Below are positions 26,550 to 46,863 of a stretch of 64,000 nt of DNA, piece after piece (the first letter of the stretch is position 1; each line of letters begins with the position of its first letter). The stretch is taken from positions 6,720-70,719 of the forward strand of contig CAVWUP010000019.1 of the NCBI GenBank assembly GCA_963758155.1, written 5' to 3'. The notes under the pieces were generated by a model. That model was given only the letters and a program-made list of their open reading frames with translations, had not been told where the DNA came from and made no database searches. Origin of the DNA: an uncultured delta proteobacterium (GTDB lineage Bacteria; Myxococcota_A; Polyangia; Fen-1088). The position numbers and the translations under genes were made by a program.

Positions 26550-27110
26550 GTGCCGGGCCACCCAATCGGCCGCCGACGTTGTAAAGTGCGGACGTCCGCC
26601 GTGTCATGCGCTCGCCGAAGATCCGTCCTGCTCATCGCCGCCGTGGCTTTGTTCTCCGGCGTCGCGGCTGCGCGTCGTGGTCCCGCCGTGGGCACGCGAC
26701 CGCCCCTGCCCATGAGCCACAAGCGCCACATGGAAAAGGATATGAGGTGCCGAGCCTGCCACCAGGGCGTGGAGGGCGAGGCCATGGCGTCGTTTCCGAC
26801 GCTGGCCGATTGCATGGACTGCCACAAGACGCCGCAGGGCCAGGAGCCCGCCGAGCCCGAGGTGCGCGCCCTGGCGGCCCACGGGCAAGAAGTCTTGTGG
26901 GTGCGACGCAACCACTTGGCCGGGCATGTGTACTTTTCGCACGCGGCGCACGTGACCTTGGCTCACATGAAATGCGAGGATTGTCATCGCGACATGCGCA
27001 CGATGGATCGCGCCTTGACCGAGCCCGACGTACACCAGGACATGCGGGCCTGCGTCGCCTGTCATCGCGCCAAACACGCCAGCCTGGACTGCCTGGCCTG
27101 CCACAAGTGA
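26550..27110 (+). CDS. periplasmic pentaheme c-type cytochrome (ActA/NrfB-like size class)
   Basis: Five CxxCH motifs: CRACH, CMDCH, CEDCH, CVACH, CLACH. The signal peptide is RRRSVLLIAAVALFSGVAAA. The start is ATG 26550 or one of two in-frame GTGs. Confidence 0.8.
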   Translation: MPGHPIGRRRCKVRTSAVSCARRRSVLLIAAVALFSGVAAARRGPAVGTRPPLPMSHKRHMEKDMRCRACHQGVEGEAMASFPTLADCMDCHKTPQGQEPAEPEVRALAAHGQEVLWVRRNHLAGHVYFSHAAHVTLAHMKCEDCHRDMRTMDRALTEPDVHQDMRACVACHRAKHASLDCLACHK

Positions 27111-27113
27111 TGC

Positions 27114-29342
27114 ATGAGTCGATTCGGCCGACGTGAACTTCTGGGTGGCGCTGCGCTGGCGGGCGCCGCGGCTTGGGGCTGTCGCCCGGGCAAGGATCGC
27201 TACCGCATCGACAAGCCGCCGCTGCCAGGCAGCCGTCCCGGCGAGGAGCGCTGGGTTCTCTCCACCTGCGCCCTGTGCAACGCGGGTTGCGGGATCAAGG
27301 TGCGCGTGGTGGAGGGCAGGGCGGTCAAGATCGAAGGCAACCCGGATCACCCGGTGAACCGCGGCGGTCTGTGCAGCCGCGGCCAGGCGGCGCTGCAGGC
27401 GCTGTACAACTCGCAGCGCGTGCATGCGCCCCTGCGGCGGCTGGGCGATCGCGGTGACGGTTCGTGGAAGCTGATTTCGTGGGACGAAGCCATCGGTGAA
27501 ATCGTGACCAAGCTGGGCAAGCTGCGCGCCGCTGGCCATCCCGAACGGCTGGTGTTGATCGACGGCGAAGCAGGCACGTTCACCCACGTGCTTTGGACGC
27601 GTTTCCTGTCGGCGTTCGGCAGCCCGAACCACATTGGAATGGGATCGGCTCGCGCCGCGGGCGTCAAGTTGGCCAGCCTCTACACGACGGGCAGTTACGG
27701 TCTGCCCGCGCACGATCTGGCCCGGGCGCGGGTCGTGCTGGCCTTTGGTGCGGAACAGATCGAATCGTCGGGCCAGACCATGCAGTTCATGCGCGCGGCC
27801 AGCGCGTTTGAGCGCCCACGCGTGATCTGCGTGTCGCCGCGCCGGCCGAGCTGCCGTTGCGATGAATGGATCCCGATTGCGCCCGGAACCTACGGCGCGC
27901 TGGCGTTGTCACTGACCCATGTGCTGGTTCGCGATGGCCTCATCGACCGGGACTTCGTCCGCGATTTCGTCTCAGGCTTTTCCACGGGGCGCGACCGAGC
28001 CGGTGTCGAGCAGCCAGGATTCGAGGCGTTGGTTCGCGCGGGGTATGCGCCGGACAGGACACAAGAAGTGACGGGCATTCCGGCAGCCACAGTCGAGCGG
28101 CTGGCGCACGATCTCGCAAAACAGCGCCCCGTGGTAGTTACCGGCGACGGTAGCGCAACGGCGGCGAGCAATGGACTGGCCACGGGTATGTCCATCGCTG
28201 CGCTCAATGTGCTGCTGGGAAACTCGGACCAAGGCGGAGTCGCGGGACCGCGTGAGATCGCTGTTCCGAAATGGGAGGCGCCCATTGTCGATGCGGTCGC
28301 AGCCGCCGGCAGCTCGGCCCCACGCATCGACGGCGCAGGCACGGCGGCTTGCCCGCTGGGGCGCGGTCGCGTGCAAGCCGTTCCCGCGGCCATCACACAG
28401 TCCAGTCCCTATCCCGTCGAGGCGCTGTTTCTGCACGGCACAGATCCGCTGGCCGCGCTGCCAGGACGGAAGGCCTGGCATACGGCGCTCCAGCGAGTGC
28501 CTTTCTTGGTGCGATTCGCCTCGTGGCTCGACGACAGCGCCCGCGGGGCGGACCTGGTGTTGCCCGAGTCTCTGCCTCTCGAGGCATTGGACATAGTCCA
28601 GCTCGCGGCGGATTCGGGCGAGCCCATGCTCAGCTTGCGCCAGCCCGTGGTGGCGCCCTTGTCAGGCACGCGGCAGGCGGGCGACGTCATTGTCGCTCTT
28701 GCTGCTGGACTTGGCGGATCAGTCGGCCGCTCGCTGCCGTGGAAGAGCTACGCAGACGCTGTGGCAAAATCGCTGTCAGCGGAAACCTTGGCTGACATGA
28801 AAGGAAAGGGCGGCCAGTGGAACGAGGCCAAGACCGACCTGCCTCCGCGCAAGTTCGAGATCGGCTCGCAGGCGATCGCGTCGCGCATGGCCGGCTTTCC
28901 CGACGCTGCGATGGCAGCACAGGCCTGGCCGTGCAAGGGATTGCCCCCCTGGGAGCCGCCCCGATTTTCCGGCGACCCGCGAAGGTTCCCCTTGCAACTT
29001 GTCCCTTACCGGCCGGTTCAGTTTGTCGAAGATGGCGGGCCGTTTTTGTCTTGGCTAGGTGAGCTGCCGCTGGTCTCGGGCAATCCATGGCCGCTGCGCG
29101 CGGAGATCAATCCTGCCGATGCTGCGCGCCTCGGTGTGGCCGACGGAGACCAGGTGCTGGTTCAATCTTCGATTGGCACCTGCCCGGCCATCGCGCAGGT
29201 CAGCGACGGTGTCTGCGTGGGCGCGGTGGCCATGGCCTTGGGCCCGGGCGGGGTTGCCGATCTGGTGGTGTCCGACGAAGACCGCTGGTCAGGCGTGCTG
29301 GCCTGGCAAGGCACGCGCGTGCGCGTGAAGAAGATGTCATGA
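27114..29342 (+). CDS. TAT-exported molybdopterin (Mo/W-bisPGD) oxidoreductase-family large subunit (PsrA/QrcB/ActB1-like)
   Basis: Twin-arginine signal MSRFGRRELLGGAALAGAAAWG. N-terminal 4Fe-4S motif CALCNAGC...C. 742 aa. The stop overlaps the next ATG (ATGA). Confidence 0.85.
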   Translation: MSRFGRRELLGGAALAGAAAWGCRPGKDRYRIDKPPLPGSRPGEERWVLSTCALCNAGCGIKVRVVEGRAVKIEGNPDHPVNRGGLCSRGQAALQALYNSQRVHAPLRRLGDRGDGSWKLISWDEAIGEIVTKLGKLRAAGHPERLVLIDGEAGTFTHVLWTRFLSAFGSPNHIGMGSARAAGVKLASLYTTGSYGLPAHDLARARVVLAFGAEQIESSGQTMQFMRAASAFERPRVICVSPRRPSCRCDEWIPIAPGTYGALALSLTHVLVRDGLIDRDFVRDFVSGFSTGRDRAGVEQPGFEALVRAGYAPDRTQEVTGIPAATVERLAHDLAKQRPVVVTGDGSATAASNGLATGMSIAALNVLLGNSDQGGVAGPREIAVPKWEAPIVDAVAAAGSSAPRIDGAGTAACPLGRGRVQAVPAAITQSSPYPVEALFLHGTDPLAALPGRKAWHTALQRVPFLVRFASWLDDSARGADLVLPESLPLEALDIVQLAADSGEPMLSLRQPVVAPLSGTRQAGDVIVALAAGLGGSVGRSLPWKSYADAVAKSLSAETLADMKGKGGQWNEAKTDLPPRKFEIGSQAIASRMAGFPDAAMAAQAWPCKGLPPWEPPRFSGDPRRFPLQLVPYRPVQFVEDGGPFLSWLGELPLVSGNPWPLRAEINPADAARLGVADGDQVLVQSSIGTCPAIAQVSDGVCVGAVAMALGPGGVADLVVSDEDRWSGVLAWQGTRVRVKKMS

Positions 29343-30164
29343 AGCGCGGCCCATCCGACGACGACATGCGCGACTCGCGACGCAAGCTCTTGGCAGGGCT
29401 GGCCGCCTCGGCCGCGGGCGCAATGGTGGGTTGCGCGCGCGCGGTGGCTGCAGCCGAGCGCACTGCCGGTTCACGCGGCCGACGGACATCGCCGCCAGTG
29501 GGGCCTGGTCATCGATCTCGACCGCTGCGCCCGTTGTGCCGGGTGCGTGGTGGCTTGCCAGCAAGAGAACAACGTCGCGCCCGCTGGCCCGCGCGTCGCG
29601 GCCCGCACGCGCCCGATCCACTGGATGGATTTTTTGCCGCCCGCGCCGGGAAGCTGTGCCGCCACTCCCATTCCCTGCATGCACTGCCAGGACCCGCCCT
29701 GCGTGAAGGTTTGCCCGGTGGGCGCGACCTACCAGACCGACGAAGGAATCACAGCGCAGGTCTGGGACCGTTGTATTGGCTGTCGCTATTGCATGGTGGC
29801 CTGTCCCTATGCGCGCCGCTATTTCAATTGGAGCGAGCCCGACTGGCCCGGCCAAGATCTGAGCAGCCTCAATCCCGACGTGGCCCCGCGGCCGCGCGGC
29901 GTGGTGGAAAAGTGCACCTTGTGCCACCACCGCATTCGCGCTGCGCTCGAGCGCGCGCGTCTCGACGAGGAACCGCTCACCGACGAAGCCTTGCACCGGC
30001 TGCCGGCTTGCGCCCAGTCCTGTCCGACCCAGGCCATCACTTTCGGTGACTTGGCTGAGCCCACATCCGAGGTGGCACGCCTGGCCGTGAGTCCGCGCGC
30101 CATGCGACTGCTTCCCGAGGCTGGCACGCGGCCCAAGGTCATCTACTTGCGGGAGAGCACGTGA
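29339..30164 (+). CDS. 4Fe-4S ferredoxin-type electron-transfer subunit (NrfC/PsrB/QrcC/ActB2-like) with an apparent +1 frame discontinuity near 29465-29490
   Basis: Frame 2 from ATG 29339 gives a TAT-type signal MKRGPSDDDMRDSRRKLLAGLAASAAGAMVGCARAVAAAER. Frame 0 from ~29487 gives HRRQWGLVIDLDRCARCAGCVVAC plus three more Cys clusters (CMHCQDPPCVKVCP, CIGCRYCMVACP, CTLCHHRIRA...C). Frame 0 has no start codon before the first ferredoxin motif. Confidence 0.7.
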
Positions 30165-31603
30165 AGGTTCGACAATCCCTTTTGCTTCTCACGGCGCTGT
30201 TCACCGTCGGCGCCTACGCCTGGGTTCAGCAGGTCCTTCAGGGCGGCGATGTGGTCATGGACCTGCACACCATCGGGGCGGGCGGCGTGGCGTGGGGCTT
30301 GTATGTCGTGGGCGATGGCTTCTTCGCCAGCACGGCGCTGGCCATCTTGGCCGTGGCGTGCGTGTTGCGCGTGCTGCGACTGCGGGGCATGGAAAACGTC
30401 TCGCGGATGGCGCTGTCTCTCGGGATCGCGGGCCTCGTGGCCTCGCTCGGCTGCGTGCTGGCTGATCTCGGCCGCCCGGAGGCCGCCATAATGAATCTGC
30501 CGCTGGTGGGGCGCCCACGCTCGCCGTTCTTCGGGACCTTCACCGCGGTGGCAGGCGCGTCGCTCTTCGCGACGGTGGTGCACCTGGCGCTGACCAGCCG
30601 GCCGGCCTGGGCACAGCGGGCACAAAAAGGCGAGCGATGGGCGTGGGTGTGGCGGCTGCTGGCCTGCGGCTGGCACGAGACGGCGTCGGCGAAACAGCGT
30701 CGAGAGAGCGTCGACTTCTGGCTGTCGCTTGTCCTGCTGCCCTTTCTGTTGGCTGGCCTTGTGATTTTGGGGATCGTGTTTGGCGTGAGGGCTGCACGTC
30801 CGACGTGGCAAAGCGTATTCGAAGTTGTCACCTTCGTCGTGTCAGGGGGCGCGGCTGGGTGCAGTCTGTTGTTGCTGGCTGCGCACGGGTCCGGGCGGGC
30901 AAGCGTGTTCACGGCGCGCATGCTGGCGGTGTTCATTGGCGTGAGCGCGCTTCTCGTGGTCACGGGACAGATCCTGGCGCTGCGTACACCATATTTGTCC
31001 GTACATCGCTACGCACGGGCGCTGCTCGACGGGCCGTGGAGCAGGCTGTTCTGGGCGGAGGTGATTCTTCTCTTTTTGGCGGGGATCGTGAGTCTGGCCA
31101 TGGCCTGGCGGAAGAAGGTCCCATTGATTTTGGCGGCAACAACCGCACTGCTGGTGTGCGCGGCCGTGGCGCTTGAACGTTTTCTGGTGTTGGTGGCCTG
31201 GCAGACGCACGGTCTGGGGCTGTCTTGGCCGGCTGGCAAGTACAACCCGACATCGATCGAATGGTCGGTGCTGGTCGGGGTAGCAGCCGGATCTGCGCTC
31301 GTCTTTCTGTTTCTGATCAAGGTTTGTCGCGCCGAAACCGGCGACGCGGCCGAGCCCGCCAGCCCCGAGCCCGCTGGCCGCCGACTTCGCTGGCTCGTCA
31401 CCGTGGCCTGCCTGATTCTGGGCTTCGCCGTCGCCGCTTCGGGTTTGGCATTGTCCGCCGGTTTCGCCAGCGCGCCATTCCTCGATCCGATCTTGCCCGG
31501 CGGCCCGCTGGTTTTCCTCGCCGGTCTGTTCCTGATGGGCCTGGCCGCAGTCGCCTACGAACTGATTCCGGATGGGGAAGTCGCTAGCGGCGCCAAGATC
31601 TGA
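30161..31603 (+). CDS. NrfD/PsrC-family polytopic membrane quinone-interacting subunit (ActC/QrcD-like)
   Basis: GTG 30161 overlaps the FeS gene stop (GTGA). A 480-aa protein with about 10-12 TM segments and the usual position in Mo/FeS/NrfD operons. Confidence 0.8.
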   Translation: MKVRQSLLLLTALFTVGAYAWVQQVLQGGDVVMDLHTIGAGGVAWGLYVVGDGFFASTALAILAVACVLRVLRLRGMENVSRMALSLGIAGLVASLGCVLADLGRPEAAIMNLPLVGRPRSPFFGTFTAVAGASLFATVVHLALTSRPAWAQRAQKGERWAWVWRLLACGWHETASAKQRRESVDFWLSLVLLPFLLAGLVILGIVFGVRAARPTWQSVFEVVTFVVSGGAAGCSLLLLAAHGSGRASVFTARMLAVFIGVSALLVVTGQILALRTPYLSVHRYARALLDGPWSRLFWAEVILLFLAGIVSLAMAWRKKVPLILAATTALLVCAAVALERFLVLVAWQTHGLGLSWPAGKYNPTSIEWSVLVGVAAGSALVFLFLIKVCRAETGDAAEPASPEPAGRRLRWLVTVACLILGFAVAASGLALSAGFASAPFLDPILPGGPLVFLAGLFLMGLAAVAYELIPDGEVASGAKI

Positions 31604-31716: not shown

Positions 31717-32934
31717 TCACCGCGCTCGGATCTCGCCGACCTGCTGCCCTGATTCGTGCGTGATGTACCCGCCCACGGTGTCGAGTTCGCGCCGAAAAGT
31801 TCTGCCGCCCAGCATATCGACCAGGCGCTCGACTCTCGGGTCGGTCGCCAAGGTACGGGGGATCACGAGGTCGAAGCGTTCCACGGCGAGCGGAATGAAT
31901 CCCAGCCCAAAGGCCGCCGCAGCGCTGCGAATGGCGATTCCCGCGTCGGCTGCGCCCATGGCAATCGCTTGTGCGACCTCCATGTGTCCAAGGGCCACGC
32001 CCGCGCTGCCGGGCACGGATGCGGGAGGTACTTTTCTTGATCTCATCGCTTGTTCGAGCAGCTTGTTCGCTCCTGCGCCGGGCTCGCGTTGGATCAGGCG
32101 GATTCTACGATGGATAAGATCTTCCGCGCCTCGGATTCCCAGCGGATTGCCAGGTCGAACGACGATTCCCTGTTCCCAGGATGCGAAGTTGACGAACAGC
32201 ATCGCGCGGCCTGGCAGCGCGCGCCGAACGAACGGGATATTGAATTCCTTCGTCGCCTCGTCGCACAGGTGAAGGCCGGCGACATGGACCTCGCCTCGCG
32301 CGAGGGCCTCGAGCGCGGCCATGCTTGAGCCTTGAACCCAGGAGATGTGAATCCCTGCCGGCTCCTGGCCGAGCCTTGCCGCCAGCATCCCCAGCGCCGG
32401 CGCGCATCCCATGACGACCAGTCGCCGGCGGACAGTCTCGATGTCACCCAGGGGCTCGACTCGCACCGTTCGCGGGCTGGCACGGCGCCGTGGCCAAGGA
32501 ACCACCAGGCCATCGGCGGCGCGGGAAGATGACTCGCTGCGCCGCGGGTCGATGGGATGCGCGATCAAGCGCCCGTCTATCTCGGCCAGGGAAACCCGGG
32601 GGCTGTTCGACTCAAACGCCCAGAGGCTTTCAGCCAAAGTTGCATCGAGCGGCTCCGGCGGAACGTTGAGACAAAAGAGAGACTCGATCCGACAGCCGAG
32701 AACATGGGCGAGGCGGAGTGCAACGTCGGTGCCAGGGACCACGCGGCCACTCTCCAAGCCGCACAGACTTTGTCGTGACAGGCCGACCTTCTTCGCGAGC
32801 TGAAGCTGGCTCAGCCCGCGGGCCAGCCGGAACTCCTTCAGCGAGGAGCGAAGCGCGGGAGGCCTGACCGCGGGGCATGTGTCGCGCCGACCTGACACCA
32901 AGTCAAAGATGCTTGCGCCGTGGCGAAACGTCAA
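31717..32934 (-). CDS. transcriptional regulator with N-terminal XRE-type HTH and C-terminal periplasmic-binding-protein-like (PBP-like, TunR/ModE-like oxyanion-sensing) domain
   Basis: HTH LKEFRLARGLSQLQLAKKVGLSRQSLCGLESGRVVPGTDVALRLAHVLGCRIESLF. The C-terminal domain resembles ModA-like binding folds. It is convergent with the Mo-enzyme operon. Confidence 0.7.
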   Translation of the reverse strand: MTFRHGASIFDLVSGRRDTCPAVRPPALRSSLKEFRLARGLSQLQLAKKVGLSRQSLCGLESGRVVPGTDVALRLAHVLGCRIESLFCLNVPPEPLDATLAESLWAFESNSPRVSLAEIDGRLIAHPIDPRRSESSSRAADGLVVPWPRRRASPRTVRVEPLGDIETVRRRLVVMGCAPALGMLAARLGQEPAGIHISWVQGSSMAALEALARGEVHVAGLHLCDEATKEFNIPFVRRALPGRAMLFVNFASWEQGIVVRPGNPLGIRGAEDLIHRRIRLIQREPGAGANKLLEQAMRSRKVPPASVPGSAGVALGHMEVAQAIAMGAADAGIAIRSAAAAFGLGFIPLAVERFDLVIPRTLATDPRVERLVDMLGGRTFRRELDTVGGYITHESGQQVGEIRAR

Positions 32935-34885: not shown

Positions 34886-35051
34886 CGGGCTCAAGTAGGC
34901 GGCGGGAGAAGCCAGGGTGTTTGACGGATTTCCGTTGGGCGTCCTGGGAACTCCTGCGGTATCCGCCTGCCAGCCAGGATTCTTGCCGTGGCCCGGAGGT
35001 CGTCGTCTGTTAGTATCCGTGTCAATCTCTGACGTTCAAAGGATCATTCCC

Positions 35052-35621: not shown

Positions 35622-35762
35622 GAAGACGCACAATCGGGCTGCGCCGAACGGGCGGCCGTCAGGCGGACAAACCATGGCCCGAGAGGCGCGGGTGGAACCG
35701 CGGGGTAGCGACGCGGTAGCCAGCGGGTAAACTTTGCTACACTCCCGTCGCGTCAGGTTGAC

Positions 35763-36930
35763 ATGACGGCTGGGTTCGGGAATGCTTCCGGCATGGACAC
35801 CCGGGTTCGAACCGCGGTCAAGGCCATGCGGCTTAGGCTCGAGATGCAGCAGCGGGATTTGGCCAAGGCTGTTGCCGTCAGTCGACAGACGCTCAGTTCG
35901 ATCGAGGCGGGCGAGACGGTTCCATCCACGCAGATCGCCCTGGCGCTGGCGCGCGAGCTGCGCTGCCGAGTAGAGGATCTCTTCAGTCTGCGTGGCGATG
36001 GACAGGTGCTCGAAGCCGAGTTCGTGCCTGAGGCGGATCGCAGTCCCGGCGATGGGCACAAGACGCGGGTGTCGCTGGGCTGGGTGGGTGAGCGCTGGGT
36101 CGCACGCTTGCTGGAAACCGACGAGGCTTTGGCGCTTGGCACTCCGGCCGACGGAATCGCGACGCTGTCAAAGGGAAAGGGCAAGTGGACCAAGCGCGCG
36201 TCCGTCCCCTTCGCGATCTGGAATCTCTTCATCGCAATCTTCTGGTCGCGGGCTGCGATCCCGCGCTCGGCTTGCTGGGGCGCCATCTGGAGGAGCGTTT
36301 CCACGGTCCTCGGTTGCATTGGATCGAGAAGGCAAGTCGGCCCGCGCTGGAGGAACTGGCGTTGGGGCGGGTGCACTTCGCCGGGATGCACCTTCTGGGC
36401 GAGGGCGGGGTGGGCGAGAACGTGGTTGCCGTTCGTGAAAGGTTTGGCAGCGAGCCCATGGTGCTGGTGACGCTGGCTTCATGGGAACAGGGCTTCGTCA
36501 GTCGGCCGGGATATCGGTACAAGAGCGCGGCGGACTTGGAACGGAAAGGCACGCGTGTAATCGCGCGAGAAGCGGGCGCGGGCGCGCAGGAGCTGCTGGA
36601 AAGCGTCTGTTTCGCAAGGCGGGCCGAAAGTTCAAGAACGTGGCGCCGGTGGCGATGGCGCGCGGGCATCGCGCGGTGGCGCAGATGGTGGCCATGGGGG
36701 TGGGCGACGTCGGCGTGGCCACGCGCTCGGCGGCGGCGAGCTTTGGCTTGCACTTCGAGCCGCTGGCAGAGGCTTGCTTTGATTTGGTCTTTCCGGCGGC
36801 GCTCGCCTCGGACGGTCGCGTGCAGGCGTTGCTCGATTGTCTGTCTGATGGGCGTTTTCGCCAGGATCTGGGGGGCATGACCGGCTATCGAACCGTACGC
36901 ACAGGACAGGCTTTCACAGGGCGCACAAGC
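35763..36930 (+). pseudogene. frame-disrupted paralog of the HTH-XRE + PBP-like regulator at 31717-32934
   Basis: Homology to the intact regulator continues across three reading frames. The HTH part is in frame 0 (35763-~36200), the middle part in frame 2 (~36200-36600) and the C-terminal part in frame 1 (~36600-36930). The junctions fall in GC-rich/homopolymer tracts. Confidence 0.55.
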
Positions 36931-37732
36931 ATGAATCGTCGCGGGCTCGTTCTCGCAGGCATGGTGGCCGTCTGTCTCAATGCACGCCGTTCCTTGCAAT
37001 GCAGCGCGCGAGGCAAGTCGAGCGCAGGAACTGGTGGTGTTTGCGGCGGCATCGCTGCGTGAGGTCTTTCAGAGCGTCGCACTGATTTTCGAGAAGCAAC
37101 ACCCGAATACGAAGGTCCGTTTCAACTTCGCGGGCAGCCAGGACCTACGCGTGCAGATCGAGCAAGGCGCCAAGGTTGACGTGTTCGCCTCGGCCGACTG
37201 GAAGCACATGAAGCTTCTGGCAACCCAGAAACTGGTCAGCGGCCCCGCGGTCTTTGCGCGCAATTTGCCGGTGTTGGTCGTGCCCAAGAACAACCCCGCC
37301 CAGGTGCGCAGCTTTGCGGATCTACCAACAGTCGCGCACCTGGTGATCGGCGCGCCCGAGGTGCCGATCGGTGCCTACACTGAAACGATTTTCGCAGCGG
37401 CGGAAAAGCTTTACGGCAAGGCCTTCCACGAACGGATCCTGGCGCGGGTGCGCTCGCGCGAGCTGAATGTGCGCCAGGTATTGACCAAGGTCGCGCTGGG
37501 CGAGGCCGACGCGGGCATCGTGTACAAGACCGATGCGCTGACCATGCCCGACAAGGTCCAGATCATCGAGATTCCCACTGAGATCAACCTGGTGGCCGAG
37601 TATCCCATCGCGGTCTTGAGCGCGGCGCCTCACTCCGAGCAGGCGCGCGCGTTCGTGAAACTGGTCTTGTCCAAGGAAGGGCAGAAGACGTTGGCCGCGG
37701 CGGGCTTCAGCAAAGTCGACGGAGCGAAGTGA
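36931..37732 (+). CDS. modA: molybdate/tungstate ABC transporter periplasmic substrate-binding protein ModA (signal peptide and mature domain in different frames)
   Basis: The mature domain carries ModA motifs ELVVFAAASL, VDVFASAD, GEADAGIVYKTDA and YPIAVLSAAPHSEQARAFVKLVLS. The signal peptide MNRRGLVLAGMVAVCL starts at ATG 36931 and is in another frame, so there is a +1 discontinuity near 36990-37020. Confidence 0.75.
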
Positions 37733-37747
37733 GGCAAGCGACTTCTT

Positions 37748-38560
37748 ATGCCAGAAGTCGTCGTCTCTACGACGCGGCCATGGTCGGGACTGGGCGGCGT
37801 GCTGTTGCTGTTTCTCGTGCTGCCCTTCGTGGCCCTGGTTTTCGATGGCGGACCCGAGGCCATCTGGCGCGGTCTCGGCTGCTCTTTGACCTGGCCCGCA
37901 CTGCGACTCAGCCTTGGGACGACGCTGGTATCGGTTGTGCTGGTGGTCGTGGGAGGCACGCCGCTGGCTTGGTGGCTGGCGCGTTCGCGCTGGCGTTCGG
38001 CGCGTTGGCTGGAGATCCTATTGCAGCTTCCGGTGGTGATTCCGCCGGCGGTGGGCGGCATCGCGCTGCTGCTGGCGTTTGGTCGGCGCGGGCTGTTTGG
38101 CGGAACCCTGGAGCGTCTCGGCTGGACGCCGGCCTTCAGCGCCGTCGCAGTTGTCATGGCCCAGGTCTTCGTGTCGGCCCCGTTCTACTTGCAAGCTGCG
38201 GTACAGGCCTTTGGCCCGTTGAACCCCAATTTGCTGGCCGTGGCGCGCAGCCTGGGCGCTTCGCCGCCGCGCCTGCTTTTGCGGGTGGCCTTGCCCCTGG
38301 CGCGCCCCTGGCTGATTGGTGGGGCCGCCATGAGCTGGGCACGCGCATTGGGGGAATTCGGTGCCACCTTGATGTTCGCCGGGAACATGACGGGCAAGAC
38401 CCAGACTCTGCCCCTGGCCATTTACACCGCATTGGAACTCGACATTCACACCGCGCAGGCCTTGTCGCTCTTATTGGTTTCGTTTGCCTTTGCCCTGTTG
38501 CTCTTTCTCCGGCGCTTTAATCGCGATCCCGAGGTCGCGCGCAGGCTGGCCACGCAATGA
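37748..38560 (+). CDS. modB: molybdate ABC transporter permease ModB
   Basis: CysTW-family signature RSLGASPPRLLLRVALPLARPWLIGGAAMSWARALGEFGATLMFAGN, with six TM segments. Confidence 0.85.
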   Translation: MPEVVVSTTRPWSGLGGVLLLFLVLPFVALVFDGGPEAIWRGLGCSLTWPALRLSLGTTLVSVVLVVVGGTPLAWWLARSRWRSARWLEILLQLPVVIPPAVGGIALLLAFGRRGLFGGTLERLGWTPAFSAVAVVMAQVFVSAPFYLQAAVQAFGPLNPNLLAVARSLGASPPRLLLRVALPLARPWLIGGAAMSWARALGEFGATLMFAGNMTGKTQTLPLAIYTALELDIHTAQALSLLLVSFAFALLLFLRRFNRDPEVARRLATQ

Positions 38561-39357
38561 CCGGCGCCTCAGTTGCGCGATTGTCTGTCGCGGTTGAAGC
38601 CGTGTTGGGAACATTTGTGCTCCAGGTCTCACTCGAGGTTGGTGCTGAGCCGCTGGCCCTGGTTGGTACCAACGGTTCGGGCAAGACCAGCTTGCTTCTG
38701 ACTATCTTGGGGCTGCGCAATCCCGCGCGCGGCCGCATCGTGCTTTGCGACGAGGTTCTTTTCGACGCCGAGACGGCCGTCGACCTTCCCACAGAAGAAC
38801 GCCACTTGGCATATTTGCCGCAGGACTTTGGCTTGTTTCCCCACCTGAGTGCGGTCGAAAACGTGGCCTTTGCCCTGGCATGCCGGTCACAGCGGCTGAG
38901 CGCAAGACAACGTCGCGACGAGGCCATGACCTGGCTGGAGCGCTTTGGAATCGGCCAGCTGGCGAAGCGAAACCCGGCGCGACTCTCCGGCGGCGAACGG
39001 CAGCGGGTCGCGCTGGCACGGGCTTTGGCGTCGTCTCCCAAGGCGCTTCTGCTCGACGAGCCCACGGCATCGCTGGACGTCGAGGCCCGTGTCGAGGTGC
39101 GCGCCTTTTTGGCTGAATCCATCCGCGCGCTCGGCTTGCCCACCATCCTGGTCACCCACGACGCCAAGGATGTCGAGGCCCTGGCCAGCCGCGTGGCGGT
39201 GCTCGAGAACGGGCGGGTTGCCGGTTGCGGCGTGCTGGGCGACATCCGGCAAAACCCACCGACGTCGTTTGCCAGCAAGCTGTTCGACTCGTCGAGAGTT
39301 CCGGGCGTAGGCGCAATCGCCAGCCCCTCTTGTGGTGGAGACGTTTCTCACAACTGA
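38557..39357 (+). CDS. modC: ABC transporter ATP-binding protein of the mod operon (ModC-like, no C-terminal TOBE domain)
   Basis: Walker A GTNGSGKTSLL, signature LSGGERQRVALARAL and Walker B LLLDEPTASLD. The start overlaps the modB stop. Confidence 0.8.
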   Translation: MTGASVARLSVAVEAVLGTFVLQVSLEVGAEPLALVGTNGSGKTSLLLTILGLRNPARGRIVLCDEVLFDAETAVDLPTEERHLAYLPQDFGLFPHLSAVENVAFALACRSQRLSARQRRDEAMTWLERFGIGQLAKRNPARLSGGERQRVALARALASSPKALLLDEPTASLDVEARVEVRAFLAESIRALGLPTILVTHDAKDVEALASRVAVLENGRVAGCGVLGDIRQNPPTSFASKLFDSSRVPGVGAIASPSCGGDVSHN

Positions 39358-39374
39358 AATAGGAGGTTCCTGCC

Positions 39375-41063
39375 ATGGCAACGTGCTTCGTCCTTAGAAT
39401 TCGATCCGCTCTTGCCTGTTTGTCTTCTTTGGCCTTCGCGGCCGCCCTGTCTGGATGCGGGAGTTCATCGGTATCCAAACCCGCAGATGCCGCCACGGAC
39501 ACATTGGCCATTGCCGACACAGCCAATCCCAACCTGGGCCGGGACACTGCCCAACCCGACACCGCAGTCGACATGGCGCTCTCTCCCGATACTGTTTCCA
39601 GTCCGGGGTTGGACGCATCCGACACCGGCGGCACAGTCGACGCGGGAGGCGTTGTCGACGCGCCCATCGCCACTGGCGGATTGGACGCGCCCACCGCGGA
39701 CGTCCCGGCCGACGGAGTCGGTGATGGCGGCGACGGAGGCAGCGACAGCGGCTCGTTGGCGGACGGCGGGGGCGGCGACGCCGGTCCTACCACCGCTTGT
39801 TCGTCGCTCGTGAATCCGCTGTACATAATGACGGGCGACACGCAGGTGCCAGTGCTGAAGACCCTGGGCAAAGCCTTGCGGCAAAACTCAGCGAATCCCA
39901 TCACGCTGGTTTGGTTCGCAACTGGCTCTTGCACCATCATCGACGCTGTCTACAACGGCACTCCGCTGACCCAGATCCCGTCCTACATCCCGAGCGATCC
40001 CACCTGGGATGACACCACGGGCGCAGTACCGACCTGTGCCTTGGAAAGCGGCGGGCGCAGCGTGGACATCGGCATTCCCATCGTGTTCCCCGCAGCCTGC
40101 TCGACCGCCACTCCGCCTGCCAACTTGGGCGCATTCAAGGGTCCGGTGCAGTCGATGCTCTTCGTGGTGCCCAAGTCGGCTTCGCCCATGGCCATCAGCT
40201 CACAACAGGCAGCCCTGGTCTTCGGTACAGGCGCCACGGCCAACATCGCGCCCTGGACCGACGAGAATTTCTACTTCATTCGCCCACCCACCAAGGGCGT
40301 GGAGGTGAGCCTTGGCGCCCTGATCGGTGTGGCACCGGCGCTGTGGCATGGGAAGCAAATCAGCGCTTCCAACGATGTCGCCACCGACGTGGCCACCTCG
40401 GTGCAGCCTGACAAGACCATCGGAATTCTTGGCAGCGAGACATACGACAGCACAACCAACCGGGCCAATCTCAAGGCGCTGGCTTTCCAGGCCGTGAATC
40501 AGACCAACGGCTATCTTCCCGATTCCACCGCAACGGCCTTCGACAAGCGAAGTCTTCGCGAGGGGCACTATGTCGCCTGGGCGCATGTCTTCTACTTGAC
40601 CAAGGTGACCTCAACCGACGCAGGCGTGTCCGTTCCAGTCAACGCCAACGCCAAGCTGTTCATCGACATTCTCACCAACACAGCCGATTCCGGCATTCCG
40701 TCCACGCTGGATCCAGTGGCGCTCGTGGCGAAGAAAGGAATCGTTCCTCTGTGCGCCATGACGGTGACCCGCTCCGTCGAAGGTGGCCCTCTTTCACTCT
40801 CCGCGCCGCCTGATCCTTGCGGCTGCTACTTCGAGAAAACGCTCGGCACCGGTACGGTTCCCACGTCCTGCGTGGCCTGTACCACAAGCGCGTCTTGCAC
40901 GGGTGGCACCACCTGCCGCCATGGCTACTGCGAAGCTGACGATGGCCGCACCTCACTCAGCGATTGCAGCGCTCTCGCCAGCGGCGCCACGTACGCTCAG
41001 ATCATCAACAATACCTGCACCGCTGGGGCGCGCTTTCAGGCCGACAACATTCCCAATCCGTGA
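39375..41063 (+). CDS. lipoprotein with Asp/Gly/Thr-rich linker, a possible periplasmic-binding-like domain and a Cys-rich C-terminus
   Basis: Signal with lipobox AAALSGC. The central region ITLVWFATGSCTIIDAVYNG resembles a binding-protein fold. The C-terminus is a myxobacterial-type Cys cluster SCVACTTSASCTGGTTCRHGYC. Confidence 0.55.
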   Translation: MATCFVLRIRSALACLSSLAFAAALSGCGSSSVSKPADAATDTLAIADTANPNLGRDTAQPDTAVDMALSPDTVSSPGLDASDTGGTVDAGGVVDAPIATGGLDAPTADVPADGVGDGGDGGSDSGSLADGGGGDAGPTTACSSLVNPLYIMTGDTQVPVLKTLGKALRQNSANPITLVWFATGSCTIIDAVYNGTPLTQIPSYIPSDPTWDDTTGAVPTCALESGGRSVDIGIPIVFPAACSTATPPANLGAFKGPVQSMLFVVPKSASPMAISSQQAALVFGTGATANIAPWTDENFYFIRPPTKGVEVSLGALIGVAPALWHGKQISASNDVATDVATSVQPDKTIGILGSETYDSTTNRANLKALAFQAVNQTNGYLPDSTATAFDKRSLREGHYVAWAHVFYLTKVTSTDAGVSVPVNANAKLFIDILTNTADSGIPSTLDPVALVAKKGIVPLCAMTVTRSVEGGPLSLSAPPDPCGCYFEKTLGTGTVPTSCVACTTSASCTGGTTCRHGYCEADDGRTSLSDCSALASGATYAQIINNTCTAGARFQADNIPNP

Positions 41064-42357
41064 AGACGCGCATTGGCCGGTTGAGTTTGGGCGGGCTCTT
41101 TTTGGTCGGGGCGGTGCACACTGCCCTGGCCGAGGAGGCGCCTGCGCCAGCTCAACCGGCGGTGGCGACCAGTTCGGCGGGCCGTCTGAGTGTAGGAGAG
41201 ACCACTCTGACGGTTGGAGGGTTTGTGCAAGCAGACGCCGTGCTGATGGACCAGTCCTCGCAGGATCAGCTCTCCCCCTCTGGGGGCGAGCCTCTCAATA
41301 CGGAACGGCTTCTCATTCGCCGTGGACACCTCTTCGTCGAAGCCAGCCGAAGAATTCCTTCGCGCGGCGGTCGAGCTGGACGCGAATACGGTCAAAGGCA
41401 TGGCGGTCGGATTGGCGCGGGCCGAGCTGGCCGCGGGCCAGACGCGGCCGCAGTGGAACTGGGAACTTGCCCTTGGCCTCGTTCGCATTCCATTCGGACT
41501 TGAAGTTCAGGAATGGGATCCCGATCGTTTCTTTCTGGAGCGCAGCAACGTCAGCCGCGCGCTCTTTCCCGGCACATTTGACTTGGGTGCGCGCGCACAA
41601 ATTGGCTGGCGATTCTTGCGTGCGCAAATGGCGGTCATGAATGGCAACCCACTGGGGGACGCATCTTTCCCGGCCCGCGATCCCAATGCGGCCAAGGATT
41701 TTGTGGGAAGGATGGGAATGGATGCCACCATCGCGGCCAAGGTCCATGTCACCGCTGGCGTTTCTTCGCTGAAGGGCACCGGGATTTCATCCCGGCACGC
41801 CCGCGACCAAGAACGTCCTGGTGTGGAACGACCAGAACGAAGACGGTATTGTCCAACTCAGCGAGATCCAGATCATTCCCGGCCGCGCGGCCACGCCATC
41901 GCAGAATTTCTCGCGCTTCGCCGTGGGGGCAGACAGTCGCATCAGCTTCGCGATTCCCCGCTTGGGTACCTCGGTGGTCTTCGGCGAAGTGGTTTGGGGC
42001 GCCAATCTGGATCGCGGGCTGCAGCCCGCCGATCCCGTTGCATCTGGTCGCGACTTGCGGGAATTCGGCTGGGTTGTGGGTGTCAGCCAGGAATTCACGC
42101 CATGGGTTGGGTTCGGCGCTCGCTACGACTTCTACAACCCGGACGTGGATGCCTCTCGGCAAACACCCACGGTTCTGGTGCCCAAAGATGTGTCCTTTCG
42201 CACCTGGACCTTCACGCTCTCGTTGGGCGGCTTTGCTCACAATCGTTTGGCTCTCGAATTCCAACATAATCGCAATGCGCTGGGCGTGGCTTCCGATGGA
42301 TCGCCGACGACCCTGGCCGCGGACACGCTGACCTTGCGCGGGCAGATGGTCTTCTGA
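41060..42357 (+). CDS. outer-membrane beta-barrel porin (phosphate-selective porin O/P-like) interrupted by two frame discontinuities
   Basis: GTG 41060 overlaps the upstream stop (GTGA). The signal is MKTRIGRLSLGGLFLVGAVHTALA. Beta-strand-rich sequence continues in frame 2 (to ~41330), frame 0 (~41330-41790) and frame 1 (~41790-42357), ending in the OMP-typical C-terminal TLRGQMVF. Confidence 0.55.
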
Positions 42358-43262
42358 TGAAGGGCAGGTCCGCCACATGGCTTTTGCCCCTCGCCGTGGC
42401 CGCGTGCGGCGGCGCGACCAGTGACACCGGCGTGGAGGCTGTCGTGCGCGTGGCCGGCGGTCAGTTCTATCGCGGCTCGATCGACAAGCTGGTCAGCGTG
42501 CGGACAGCCCCAACCGTCGTGGACGTGTTGAATAGCCAAAACGTGATCACGCCCGGCCTGGAAAACAAGCAGATCTCTGGCCGCTTGGATCCAGGGAGCA
42601 CGGCGGTGGCCATCGGTTTGGCTGGCGATATCGGCTACTGGATTCTTGCGGCTGACGTGCCTGACATGGACAGCCCAACCCAACCGACCTTCCATGCCAG
42701 CCTGTCGTTTTCACCGTCGCTGCCAAAAACGTCCTACGATCTACTGGTTCGTGCGGCGGCCCCGCCCAACAGCATGGGGCCCGCGACGCATGTGCCTCTG
42801 GACGTGGAGCAGAGCTTGCCCCCGACCGGGGCGTTGGTTGTCTCATTGTGGTGGGACACGGAGTCCGATCTCGATCTGCACGTGGTCGACCCTTCTGGGG
42901 TCGAGGTGTGGGCCGGCAACATCAACTCCTACGATCGATATTCGACGTTGCCGATGCCCGATGCTGGAGCCATGAGTGAAGCTGGCATTCTCGACTTCGA
43001 CTCCAACGCTGGGTGCGTGATCGATGGCCGTTGCAATGAGAACGTGGTTTGGGCAGTGACCGCGCCAGTCGGTGACTATGTGGCTCGCGTGGACACATTC
43101 TCGCTTTGTGGGAATTCGGCTGCACGCTGGACTGTAGAGGCACTGCTCAATGGGGTTTCGCTGGGCAAGGCAAAGGGCGAGGCACTTCCCGCCAGTCAGC
43201 GTTTCAGCAAAGGCAAAGGTAGTGGACTCACGGTCCTGACATTCACTGTTCCATCCCCATGA
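42357..43262 (+). CDS. hypothetical lipoprotein (operon member)
   Basis: The ATG overlaps the porin stop (TGATG). The signal MKGRSATWLLPLAVAACGG has a lipobox. Confidence 0.55.
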   Translation: MKGRSATWLLPLAVAACGGATSDTGVEAVVRVAGGQFYRGSIDKLVSVRTAPTVVDVLNSQNVITPGLENKQISGRLDPGSTAVAIGLAGDIGYWILAADVPDMDSPTQPTFHASLSFSPSLPKTSYDLLVRAAAPPNSMGPATHVPLDVEQSLPPTGALVVSLWWDTESDLDLHVVDPSGVEVWAGNINSYDRYSTLPMPDAGAMSEAGILDFDSNAGCVIDGRCNENVVWAVTAPVGDYVARVDTFSLCGNSAARWTVEALLNGVSLGKAKGEALPASQRFSKGKGSGLTVLTFTVPSP

Positions 43263-45301
43263 AAGCGCAGGCGAGCGTCTTCACGCTGGCAATGCTTGCG
43301 GGCGAGCCCGAAGCGCTGGCGAGCGACGCCAACGAGACCGTGGTGATTGCGCCGCCGTCGAAGACCGTAGGCGAGTCTGGCTTTTCCACGTCTGAGTTGC
43401 GCCAGCTTCCCGGAGCGCAGGGCGATGCGGGCAAGGCCCTGGAAAACCTGCCCGGTGTGGCACGGCCGGGACTGGCGGGTGGCGAACTGGTGGTGTGGGG
43501 CGCAGCGCCTACCGAGACACGCGTGGTGGTCGACGGCATGGAGATTCCAGCGCTGTATCACTTGGGTGGACTACGTTCGGTGGTTCACAGCGGCTTCTTG
43601 CGCACGCTGACCCTGGTGCCTGGCGGCTATGGTCCGGAGTACGGCCGCGGCCTGGGCGGACTGGTTCAAATGGCCAGCCGGGGGGGGCCGATCGAACGCT
43701 ACCAAGGAGAGGTGGATGTGGATGTCCTCGATGCGTCGTTTTGTGCGGGCGCGGCCACAGAAAAAGGCGCTGGCGTTCTGGCCGCCGGCCGCATCGGCTA
43801 TCTGGATCGTATCATGAACGGCGCCCTATCATCCGACACCCGGCGCTTGTTTCCCCTTGCGCGCTATCGCGACTTTCAGGGCAAGGCCGTTTTCCCTTTG
43901 CGCGATGACGAAAGAGTCGAGGTGATCTTCCTGACCTCTGCCGATGCCAGCTCGATCTCTGGTAGCACTACGATTCCTTCCTCGTTTGCCGAGCAAGATC
44001 GGACGCAATCCTTTTCCCGTCTCGGGTTCAGATACCTGCGCGCGTTTCCCGATGGTGCAAGCGCATCGCTGACTCCCTTTGTTGGCTGGGACCAAACGCG
44101 CCGGCAGGAAATCGCGGGGCAGGGCAGGGCGGACGAATCGATGGCCTCGACCGTGCTGGGTCTGCGCGGAGAGTACGGGGCGCCGCTTTCTCCGAGGCTG
44201 ACTCTGGTCGCGGGGTTTGATGGACTGCTTACGCTGTCGAACGTCGAGCGCTCCGGATCACCGACGCTGCCGCCCAGAGAAGGCGACATAGTCGCTTTTG
44301 GCCAGCCGATGTCGGGAGGAGCGAGTGCTGACACGTGGAGCGCCTCGGTGGGAAATCTGGCTCCCTACACCACATTGGAGATCACGCGAGGGCGTTGGCG
44401 CTTGCTTCCGTCGCTGCGGCTTGACGGATTCGTCATCTCACCCGATCGCAGCACCCCCGAGAATGGCGTCACGCCGCGAGCGGGATCTGCGCGTTTGTCC
44501 TGGTCGCCAGCTCCGCGTCTGGCCGTCGCACACCAGACCCGTTCTTGGCTGCGCGAAAACCTGTCGCTGGGGCTGTACCACCAGGCTCCCGCGCCGAGCG
44601 ACCTGAGTGCAGTCTTTGGTTCGCCCAGCCTGGGGGTTGCCCACGCTGTGCACGTTGTGGCTGGGACAGACATGGATGTCGGTCAGCACCTGAACGTGCA
44701 GCCCACTTTGTTCTACCGCTATATGTGGGATCTGGTGATGCGCAATCCCGACGCAAGCCCTGCCTTGGCGCACGCTCTGGTTCAAGATGGCGTGGGCCGC
44801 GCCTATGGCGCCCAGATCCTATTGCGCTTCTCGCCTCACGCGGGGCTTTCTGGTTGGCTGGCCTACACGCTCAGCCGCAGCGAGCGCAGGCACGCCTCCG
44901 ATCCATCCTACCGACTGCTCGATCAGGACCAAACCCATCTTCTCACCTTCGCTGCCCATGCTTCGCGCCGCGGGTTCGTCCTGGGTCTGCGATTTCGCTT
45001 GGCCAGCGGAATGCCACGAACGCCAGTGATTGGCAGCTACCTGGACGCGACCACAGGACAGTACCAGCCCATCTTCGGCCCACAGAACAGCATTCGCCTG
45101 CCTGTCTTTTACGCGCTCGATCTTCGCGTCGAGAAGCACTTTCGCAGACGCTCGCTGGACATCGTTCCTTACCTGGAAATTCTCAACCTTACCAATCACG
45201 CGAACGTCGAGGAATTCGCCTACGACGAACAATTCGCCTCGCGCTCGAACATCACGGGCCTGCCCATTCTCGCCGTGGCCGGAGTGTCAGTGAGGTTCTG
45301 A
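43259..45301 (+). CDS. TonB-dependent receptor-like outer membrane transporter (plug + 22-strand barrel)
   Basis: The signal peptide is followed by a plug-like region (ETVVIAPPSKTVGESGFSTSELRQLPG...ALENLPGV), a long beta-barrel region and a C-terminal aromatic residue (...VSVRF). The start overlaps the previous stop. Confidence 0.7.
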   Translation: MKAQASVFTLAMLAGEPEALASDANETVVIAPPSKTVGESGFSTSELRQLPGAQGDAGKALENLPGVARPGLAGGELVVWGAAPTETRVVVDGMEIPALYHLGGLRSVVHSGFLRTLTLVPGGYGPEYGRGLGGLVQMASRGGPIERYQGEVDVDVLDASFCAGAATEKGAGVLAAGRIGYLDRIMNGALSSDTRRLFPLARYRDFQGKAVFPLRDDERVEVIFLTSADASSISGSTTIPSSFAEQDRTQSFSRLGFRYLRAFPDGASASLTPFVGWDQTRRQEIAGQGRADESMASTVLGLRGEYGAPLSPRLTLVAGFDGLLTLSNVERSGSPTLPPREGDIVAFGQPMSGGASADTWSASVGNLAPYTTLEITRGRWRLLPSLRLDGFVISPDRSTPENGVTPRAGSARLSWSPAPRLAVAHQTRSWLRENLSLGLYHQAPAPSDLSAVFGSPSLGVAHAVHVVAGTDMDVGQHLNVQPTLFYRYMWDLVMRNPDASPALAHALVQDGVGRAYGAQILLRFSPHAGLSGWLAYTLSRSERRHASDPSYRLLDQDQTHLLTFAAHASRRGFVLGLRFRLASGMPRTPVIGSYLDATTGQYQPIFGPQNSIRLPVFYALDLRVEKHFRRRSLDIVPYLEILNLTNHANVEEFAYDEQFASRSNITGLPILAVAGVSVRF

Positions 45302-46200
45302 TGCGTGGACTTGCACTTCCTGCGTTTCTGTTGCTGGCCAATTGCGCGCCGAAAATGGGCAATCCTGCTTCGCTCATCACGCAGGAACGGATCATCGGCG
45401 TGCGCGGCGATCCTGCTGAAGCGGCGCCTGGAGATCTGGTCAAGTACTCCAGTTTGGTGGCTTCTCCCTCGGGAACCGTGCAGGCCCAGCAACTGTCGTG
45501 GAGTCTGTGCAAACTGCGCAAGCCGGTTGCCGAGAACACCCCAGTGAGCCAGGCCTGCCTGACCGACGATCTGGCGCAGTCGGCACAGGGCGGATCGGTC
45601 TCGATTCAGACGCCCAGCTCCGCGTGTTCGAATTTTGGGCCGTTGGCGCCAGCCTCAAGCGGTGGAACCCTTCGACCCTCCGACCCGGACGCGACCGGTG
45701 GCTACTACCAACCCCTGCGGCTTGATCTCGACGCGGCGCAGGCCATTTTTCGCGAGCGGCTGAGCTGCGGGCTCGCGGGCGCGTCGCTGGCCATGGCCCA
45801 GGAATTCCGCGCGAGCTACACCCCCAACCAGAATCCCACGCTGGTGTCCCTGTCGGCCCTGGTGGACGGGACGTCGGTGTCGCTCGATGCGCTGCCGGCC
45901 AGTCAGCGCGTTGGCCTGGTCGCGACCTGGGCGCCCGACTCGGCTGAATCCTATCCCGTCTTCGATTCTGCCTCGCAGACGATCGTGGACCAGTCTGAGG
46001 ATCTTTGGCTCTCTTGGTTCGCCACGGCCGGCGCTTTCGACAAGTCGCTGACTGCGCGCCCGGAAGGCGATACGGCGGCCGCGAACGAAAACACTTGGGA
46101 GTCCCCCGCAGGGGCTGCGGTCGTCTTCCTATGGCTCGTCCTGCACGATAGCCGCGGGGGCGCTGACTTCGCCGCCTACACGCTGACGGTTGTGCCGTGA
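45300..46200 (+). CDS. hypothetical lipoprotein (last gene of the mod/receptor operon)
   Basis: The ATG overlaps the receptor stop (TGATG). The signal MRGLALPAFLLLANC has a lipobox. Confidence 0.55.
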
Positions 46201-46204
46201 CTAT

Positions 46205-46693
46205 TCATGACTGCTTCAGGTCCTTGGCCATCTCGACCACGGTCGGCCTGAAGCCGAGCGCGCGGATGAGAGCGTGCGATGTCTCGTTCTGCCAGGCGGC
46301 GGTGGCAACCGCGAAGGGGGCGCCGAGGGCGGTCAGCCGATTGAGGCACTCGCGCAGCATGGCGGCGGCCAGGCCTTGGCGGCGAGCGCGGTCGACGACG
46401 AAGACGTCGTGCAGCCGGCCACAGTCATCGCGCAGCTCGGCCCAGTTGCGGTCTTCCAGGCTGGCGTAGGCGTACCCCACTATCTCGCGACTGTCTTCGT
46501 CCTCGGCCACCAAGATGATGGTGCCGTGGTTGCCGAGCTGACTGGCGAAGTACCGCGCGTAGCCGGCCTCGACCCGCTCGGGAAGCATCCAGCGCCCCGG
46601 ATCGAAGCCGTGGTGCTGGCGCACGAGTTGGCCCGCCAAGCTGCCCACGGCCGGCAAGTCTTCAGGCAAGGCATCGCGAATGCGGAATCCCAC
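46205..46693 (-). CDS. GNAT-family N-acetyltransferase
   Basis: Acetyl-CoA binding motifs VFVVDRARRQGLAAAML (Q/RxxGxG/A) and GFRP. Confidence 0.8.
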   Translation of the reverse strand: MGFRIRDALPEDLPAVGSLAGQLVRQHHGFDPGRWMLPERVEAGYARYFASQLGNHGTIILVAEDEDSREIVGYAYASLEDRNWAELRDDCGRLHDVFVVDRARRQGLAAAMLRECLNRLTALGAPFAVATAAWQNETSHALIRALGFRPTVVEMAKDLKQS

Positions 46694-46728
46694 GGCGAAG
46701 TCGTAGCACGAACCGATCCCTCAAGCTT

Positions 46729-46801: not shown

Positions 46802-46863
46802 CAAACGGACCTCTCATAGATACCACTTCTGCGGGCAGGTGGGGAGGGTTGTTCGACGCTTCG

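Follow-up and report, generated by a model that had tools for sequence, protein, structure and literature searches.

A 64,000-nucleotide stretch of DNA from an uncultured delta proteobacterium (the window; GC ~63%) carries nine consecutive + strand genes over positions 35763-46200, reg-modA-modB-modC-lipoPBP-porin-lipo301-TBDR-lipo300, in which a ModABC-type transporter is joined to a TunR-like regulator and to five genes for outer-membrane components. The closest public relatives of the window are uncultured Polyangia metagenome-assembled genomes (MAGs). By analogy with known receptor-lipoprotein pairs, we lean slightly towards reading this system as a TonB-energised outer-membrane route for molybdate or tungstate that would feed ModABC, with a PstS-fold lipoprotein of what we call the D-type as its capture subunit. 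This reading draws on the observed gene content, coupling, conservation, protein folds, partition of binding motifs and shared upstream element. The link to molybdenum and tungsten (Mo/W) comes entirely from genomic context, and substrate, lipoprotein topology and energisation are our inferences.

A nine-gene unit around modABC

The unit opens with reg (35763..36934, with an alternative ATG start at 35793), which encodes a TunR-like regulator with HTH_3 and PBP_like domains. It is followed by modA (36931..37732), encoding a periplasmic molybdate/tungstate-binding protein with a signal peptide, MNRRGLVLAGMVAVC, and a PF13531 match (E 6e-52), by the permease gene modB (37729..38560; TIGR02141, TIGR01581) and by modC (38557..39357), encoding an ATPase of 266 amino acids (aa; PF00005). 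The outer-membrane set begins with lipoPBP (39375..41063), a 562-aa lipoprotein with a PstS-fold domain, and porin (41060..42357), an outer-membrane beta-barrel with a signal peptide and a C-terminal F. It continues with lipo301 (42357..43262), a 301-aa lipoprotein with the lipobox VAAC, TBDR (43259..45301), a 680-aa TonB-dependent receptor with a PF00593 domain, and lipo300 (45301..46200), a 299-aa lipoprotein with the lipobox LANC.

A preliminary description of this DNA, made from its sequence, had proposed an eight-gene coupled operon in which every junction overlaps. The coupling stands, and the count rises to nine, since the TGA stop of the TunR-like reg overlaps the ATG of modA (ATGA, read from the sequence). 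Overlaps are present at seven of the eight junctions: GTGA at modA/modB, where the GTG start of modB overlaps the modA stop, ATGA at modB/modC, GTGA at lipoPBP/porin, where the GTG start of porin overlaps the lipoPBP stop, TGATG at porin/lipo301, ATGA at lipo301/TBDR and TGATG at TBDR/lipo300. The sole non-overlapping junction lies between modC and lipoPBP, which are separated by a 17-nt spacer containing the Shine-Dalgarno sequence AGGAGG. Together the tight junctions and the conserved gene order suggest that reg to lipo300 form one transcription and translation unit, as had been proposed. After position 46200 the unit meets a convergent GNAT gene and then a tRNA gene.

Sequence models identify modABC as a genuine ModABC-type system with predicted molybdate/tungstate transport, in agreement with the earlier naming of these genes: both ModA and ModB exceed NCBIfam equivalog cut-offs. 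For ModA, the orthologue in the metagenome contig L001, which is 88.5% identical to the body of the window protein, scored 135.2 bits against TIGR01256 (cut-off 62.5). The window ModB itself scored 205.7 bits against TIGR02141 (cut-off 182.6) and 223.7 bits against TIGR01581 (cut-off 210.3). The best NCBIfam match of ModC was TIGR02142 at 200.8 bits, below the cut-off of 285 and covering positions 1-225 of 353; the protein lacks the C-terminal TOBE/Mop domain that this equivalog includes. By our own reading, the anion-contact positions of E. coli ModA are presumably conserved (AAASL, FAGS, VYKTD). The unit thus resembles an E. coli-type ModABC system in its equivalog ModA and ModB, its modA-modB-modC order and its overlapping junctions. 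It differs in having a ModC without TOBE, a TunR-like regulator (HTH_3 plus PBP_like) instead of ModE, and five co-translated outer-membrane genes, whereas classical systems have no dedicated outer-membrane step.

The nine-gene order recurs in the metagenome contigs L001, L003 and L087 and in 12 of 53 species-representative loci holding lipoPBP, from Stordalen fen and Danish soil MAGs, so that the preliminary description's proposal to look for this exact order in relatives had a positive outcome. Receptor identity among the conserved loci is ~69-89% (89% in L001, 71% in L003). A far more divergent member, L038 (lipo300 41%, ModA 56% identity), has the same gene order. Judged by these comparisons, the sharing of nine genes in order is far beyond chance. 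Exact-sequence look-ups of the window receptor and of a 100%-identical lipo300 (P0241) found no contig.

Public gene calls in the family differ on start sites. In L001 the lipoPBP call (6167) is 15 codons short and loses the charged n-region, and the porin call, which lacks 14 codons, misses the GTGA overlap that L087 (6528) and the window show. Synteny between the window and L001 stops right after lipo300 (window 46187-46802): the window continues with the GNAT gene (46205-46693, -) and the tRNA gene (46730-46802, -), and the relatives with DUF4215 and GH9-CBM3 cellulase genes.

Outer-membrane components and a five-gene module

In the lipoPBP protein, the lipobox LSGC is followed by a linker of ~115 aa that is acidic and of low complexity and then by a PstS-fold domain (residues ~141-480 of the window protein), and the C-terminal tail is rich in Cys. 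Its domain has the class II periplasmic-binding-protein (PBP) fold, with PstS as the nearest solved structures, which specifies what had previously been called a binding-protein-like lipoprotein. Searches against Pfam and NCBIfam, including PBP_like_2 and ptsS, gave no family match. A profile of the lipoPBP copies from mod-linked loci found no PstS among PDB sequences, and a profile of the S-type copies defined below reached PstS marginally (E ~1e-3).

The anion-binding loops divide this family in two. The canonical phosphate loops of PstS structures are GS[ST]-x-x-P and R-x3-SGT; the window protein has GDTQVP and RPPTKGV in their place. We scanned a lipo300 alignment against species-representative genomes, found 306 relatives, kept 79 loci and classed their contexts by a tblastn survey. 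Almost all of the 79 loci are labelled Myxococcota or carry the broader, older names Deltaproteobacteria or Proteobacteria, with one Opitutaceae label. In class A (12 loci) the five outer-membrane genes come after reg-modABC. In class B (13 loci) ExbB-ExbD-TonB is inserted between lipo301 and the receptor. Class C (28 loci) has the five genes alone; in 14 of these loci a regulator of the HTH_3- or HTH_17-PBP_like kind stands directly before them. Loops of the GS[ST]A and SGT[RQ] type were found in all 13 ExbBD-TonB-linked modules, and GDTQ with TK[GS]T-like loops in 12/12 mod-linked and 28/28 other modules. On these sequence motifs, the S-type, with canonical PstS motifs, is class B, and the D-type, with GDTQ/TK[GS]T, is classes A and C; canonical PstS loops are present only in S-type paralogues. 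Clustered at 50% identity, the whole lipoPBP family (E ≤ 1e-3) falls into 1070 clusters, and among the top 150 of the 1070 cluster representatives the two loop signatures co-vary with zero cross-combinations.

Both types occur within single MAGs (L017 with L082, L018 with L072 on one contig, L019 with L060, L030 with L052, and L024 with L031), which argues for different specificities of the S-type and D-type proteins. Directly upstream of ~27 of 40 D-type modules lies a PBP_like-domain regulator; no S-type module has one there. The preliminary description had called the outer-membrane genes fused to modABC; they are indeed so here, but they are one variant of a Polyangia five-gene module that includes a phosphate-type sister.

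Several further features of the family were observed. Class B receptors carry an N-terminal TonB_C and CarboxypepD_reg extension (e.g. L006/L007 10001-12610), many class B proteins are annotated 'TonB family protein', and an OmpR-type response regulator usually follows the class B module. The class B loci L006/L007 have phosphodiesterase, Ppx and phosphoesterase genes as neighbours. In the class A loci L013 (2869-5753) and L014 (2887-5765), lipoPBP is tandemly duplicated between modC and porin. In L088 (777-12831), two SBP_bac_11 proteins and a HisKA/OmpR two-component system, which is co-oriented with one SBP_bac_11 gene, border the module; this is another oxyanion-type sensing context.

Compared with PstS and with the phosphate-starvation porins OprP/OprO of Pseudomonas, lipoPBP differs in being lipid-anchored, in its Cys-rich tail and in matching no PstS sequence model; the mod-linked copies have GDTQ/TKG(V/T) loops, and the partner is a TonB-dependent receptor, not PstCAB. 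The barrel gene is intact in L001 and L087 (417/431 aa). Six of 21 members of its family match Porin_O_P (PF07396; best E 2.6e-4), all below the 20.9-bit cut-off, the pieces of the window porin gave no PF07396 match, and a porin profile found nothing meaningful among PDB sequences. The label 'OprO/P-like' given to it earlier thus corresponds to Pfam matches that are all sub-threshold. The barrel family shares a conserved W-x-D-x-N-E-D-G-I-V-Q-L-x-E loop (window 41821-41871, third frame) similar to a calcium-binding repeat of the dockerin or EF-hand kind; the best PDB match is a weak one, to a type I dockerin.

The receptor is small and very divergent. It scored 32.2 bits against PF00593, the model of the 22-strand barrel domain (cut-off 27), and its plug 21.0 bits against PF07715 (cut-off 23.9); many close homologues are annotated with PF07715. 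The signal peptide is followed by ETVVIAP, conserved as ETVVxAP in a 31-sequence family consensus, which we take to be a TonB box by comparison with those of BtuB and FhuA. The nearest solved chains are YncD/PqqU, at E ~1e-3 only.

Of the remaining lipoproteins, lipo301 is a predicted beta-sandwich present in every module, with weak C-terminal PF04151 (PPC-like) matches in 7/20 members and no match for its profile among PDB sequences. The lipo300 protein is modelled by AlphaFold2 as tandem immunoglobulin (Ig)-like beta-sandwiches (pLDDT 85.3). A Foldseek search with it returned generic Ig-like tandems only, and its profile found nothing meaningful among PDB sequences; in the surveyed loci its gene always directly follows the receptor gene. 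In Myxococcus xanthus, Lys at position +2 is the inner-membrane retention signal of lipoproteins (PMC3222651). None of the three lipoproteins of the locus has it (0/3), and by analogy with M. xanthus we infer that this rule may extend to Polyangia.

The arrangement is reminiscent of TbpA/TbpB, SusC/SusD and BtuB/BtuG, in which lipoprotein genes likewise flank the receptor gene and are translationally coupled to it, and one partner lipoprotein has a ligand-binding fold, making capture and hand-over plausible. Here, in contrast, the partner has a class II PBP fold and the cargo would presumably be a free inorganic oxyanion. The set also includes a separate porin-like barrel, and the receptor diverges strongly from solved ones.

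The regulator, its upstream element and neighbouring genes

The intact orthologues of reg in L001 and L087 (388/378 aa) carry PF01381 and PF12727, the latter with E 5.7e-45 in L001, and the PBP domain of reg also matches the MoeA-fused domain of PRK14498. A helix-turn-helix (HTH) domain combined with a PF12727 PBP_like domain, the TunR-like architecture, was found in reg and in a second copy at the locus. TunR of Desulfovibrio is a tungstate-responsive regulator with an N-terminal HTH and a C-terminal PBP_like domain (PF12727/COG1910). The likeness lies in the same domain architecture and in a gene next to a Mo/W transporter; Mo/W sensing by reg is putative.

Directly upstream of reg we identified the element GTAAAC-N24-TTGAC (35727..35762, +), a candidate for the promoter and operator of the entire unit. 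Its TTGACA is -35-like and is followed by AATGCT 17 nt further on, and GTAAAC and TTGACA are invariant across the aligned upstream regions of 11 class A loci. The element has a single match within the window; a search of the window's other Mo-related promoters found none. It occurs in 15 of 89 loci: 13 times directly upstream of reg, once upstream of lipoPBP (L038) and once at an unrelated site (L034). Among the modABC-linked or related loci with a readable upstream region, it precedes the operon in 14/14.

Two loci separate the outer-membrane genes from modABC. In L038 the unit is split: modC is followed by a divergent gene for a 67-aa TOBE/Mop protein (PF03459, E 1.9e-16), and the element lies past this mop gene, just upstream of lipoPBP. 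In L019 (3133-10897), reg and the element stand directly before lipoPBP and modABC is absent. On account of these two arrangements, the outer-membrane genes appear tied to the Mo-type regulator and follow it and its element even when unfused to modABC. A mop-like gene also lies just upstream of the element in L011.

The second TunR-like regulator gene (31717..32934, -; PF12727 E 7.7e-64, PF01381 E 1.4e-12) sits between the mod unit and a Psr-like molybdoenzyme operon (26550..31603, +), whose Pfam matches comprise a multihaem cytochrome c, a molybdopterin oxidoreductase, a 4Fe-4S protein and an NrfD-type membrane subunit. This operon is a likely consumer of Mo/W, and the earlier observation of a Mo/W-enzyme operon and two TunR-like regulators at this locus was borne out. 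The operon's 4Fe-4S gene (29339-29560) appears frameshifted near 29.45 kb: the N-terminus, of the twin-arginine translocation (TAT) type (MKRGPSDDDMRDSRRKLLAGLAA...), and the WGLVIDLDRCxxCxxC body lie in different frames. Among the suspicious gaps and overlaps examined, no other break was identified outside the mod unit. Between the two TunR-like genes (33116-35621) lie a gene for a DUF362 protein of 589 aa with a TAT signal and a family-less open reading frame (ORF) of 234 aa, both kept upstream of reg in L001 and L087 and not in L003.

Unrelated neighbours in the window are a TetR-flanked resistance-nodulation-division efflux operon (19617-26446; OEP, HlyD and AcrB genes) and an LPP20/CsgG-like lipoprotein pair (52187-53921). 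A suspected frameshift in tandem FMN-reductase genes at 18.2-19.5 kb was rejected, these being two separate genes. An Rfam scan of the window found no molybdenum cofactor riboswitch and one tRNA only.

Proposed route, alternatives and meaning

In the route that we favour, scarcity of Mo/W would lead the regulator to release or activate the single promoter at GTAAAC-N24-TTGACA. Tethered lipoPBP would catch molybdate or tungstate at the outer membrane and pass the anion to the TonB-energised receptor, with the barrel as a passive anion route, and periplasmic ModA would then carry it to ModBC. A capture role for lipoPBP is suggested by analogy with TbpB/TbpA, SusD/SusC and BtuG/BtuB.

Several observations weigh against this route. 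No ExbBD-TonB genes were found in class A loci, no Mo-linked neighbour could be detected for 12-14 D-type modules, and the porin assignment is sub-threshold. A scan for sigma-70 promoters and terminators gave matches not above shuffled expectation. The evidence is one of sequence throughout, and each of the 79 genome loci belongs to an uncultured organism (78 titled MAG, 1 lichen metagenome bin). Finally, four genes of the unit in the window, reg, modA, modB and porin, are frameshifted, and function in this genome hinges on the breaks being artefacts.

These breaks were crossed by the preliminary description, which had taken the ORFs as continuous. In tblastn alignments, reg and porin are each spread over three frames. 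The modA signal peptide (ATG at 36931) is out of frame with the solute-binding-protein (SBP) body (ORF 36980-37732), and the modB body does not share the frame of the GTG start at 37729, owing to a +1 insertion at 37785 that cuts off the first 19 codons. The contig L087 (GCA_049690695.1, JBAVNC010000196.1) is 96.7% identical to the window over 34523-44563, and all of its genes are intact. Against it the window shows 13 indel events, all of them insertions of 1-2 nt: in reg at 36182, 36188, 36601 (+2) and 36922; in modA at 36979 (+2), 37005 and 37016, a net +1 frameshift; in modB at 37785; in porin +1 at 41350 and +1 at 41784; and in lipo301 three, which sum to +3 and keep the frame. A decaying pseudogene cluster with real frameshifts in reg, modA, modB and porin could account for the packing of the 13 events into 36.2-42.5 kb, for the intact long ORFs elsewhere in the window and for the further break in the neighbouring Mo-enzyme 4Fe-4S gene. 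We nevertheless consider decay very improbable. Without the extra bases, modB, modC and orf234 upstream match L087 exactly, modA shows 2 differing sites, there are no new stop codons, and pN/pS (nonsynonymous relative to synonymous change) is 0.1-0.3, a pattern that fits consensus error. The insertions are probably consensus or assembly errors, because the breaks are insertion-only and outnumber substitutions and the near-identical L087 is intact. Programmed frameshifting was rejected on the absence of the breaks from L087. Divergence between the window and L087 is itself mosaic, with orf234, modB and modC identical and porin, lipo301 and the receptor at pS 0.14-0.22, and this mosaic suggests recombination breakpoints within the operon, around lipoPBP.

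The function of the outer-membrane genes could also be read differently. They might import another cargo (phosphate, sulfate, vanadate, arsenate or a metal-anion complex) and be only co-located or co-regulated with modABC; the PstS-like fold of lipoPBP, the phosphate-related neighbours of its S-type sister, the many D-type modules without adjacent modABC and the L088 module with its two-component system and SBP_bac_11 proteins are all compatible with this. We think it unlikely: the canonical phosphate loops are replaced in every mod-linked copy, S-type paralogues in the same MAGs would make such a function redundant, translational coupling to modABC is kept across deep divergence, and the split L038 locus retains the regulator's upstream element next to mop. 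Alternatively, lipoPBP could be a tethered second SBP that feeds ModBC, for example to select tungstate over molybdate, while the barrel and receptor provide permeability and no surface capture. Its gene immediately follows modC with its own Shine-Dalgarno sequence, the ~115-aa tether could span the periplasm, and lipoprotein SBPs are a known arrangement. Yet in classes B and C lipoPBP travels with porin, receptor and lipoprotein genes and not with ATP-binding cassette (ABC) genes, a canonical ModA is already encoded, and lipoPBP lacks the +2 Lys, which leaves this option distinctly unlikely.

The preliminary description had suggested, as one of two options, uptake of a Mo/W-metallophore complex by the receptor. 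TonB-dependent receptors are classical importers of metal chelates, catecholate 'molybdophores' are known in Azotobacter, and the nearest solved relatives, YncD/PqqU, are small-molecule transporters. The PqqU similarity is marginal, however, and no non-ribosomal peptide synthetase or siderophore-type biosynthesis or export genes were found in the annotated window (~18-54 kb) or related loci. The lipoPBP fold is, moreover, that of an oxyanion-type class II PBP and not of a siderophore-binding protein. We accordingly regard metallophore uptake as highly unlikely.

In literature searches on TonB-dependent molybdate/tungstate uptake, molybdophore receptors, PstS-type surface lipoproteins and TunR, we found no description of such a system, in keeping with the initial impression that it is not a standard one. 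Each component is of a known kind; their assembly, hard-wired to modABC under a TunR-like regulator, is not, and it did not turn up in these searches. The nearest precedent, as cited in PMC11734730, is outer-membrane-assisted Mo uptake in Pseudomonas aeruginosa, where ModA secreted by a type VI secretion system (T6SS) acts with IcmP. As far as that citation describes it, both cases have a molybdate-binding protein at or outside the outer membrane that aids Mo acquisition, whereas the components are unrelated: here there is no T6SS, and the binder is lipid-anchored and PstS-derived instead of a secreted ModA.

More broadly, and more tentatively, with less than even confidence, we propose a hitherto undescribed Polyangia family of five-component outer-membrane machines for free oxyanions, in which a lipid-anchored PstS-fold binder would deliver to a minimal TonB-dependent receptor and which would be split into phosphate (S-type) and Mo/W (D-type) paralogues within one genome. 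In the S-type/D-type pair there is a natural experiment that bears on how a site for phosphate is adapted to a different oxyanion.

For molybdate and tungstate, passage through the Gram-negative outer membrane is assumed to be passive. A TonB-energised capture step would alter that picture and, for molybdate uptake, give the first outer-membrane step that is both dedicated and energised. Free oxyanions would join the cargo list of TonB-dependent receptors, and a periplasmic-binding-protein fold would have been recruited as an outer-membrane capture subunit. The carriers are abundant Polyangia of fen, peat and soil, and because Mo is poorly available in these habitats, the system may matter for their Mo-dependent respiration.

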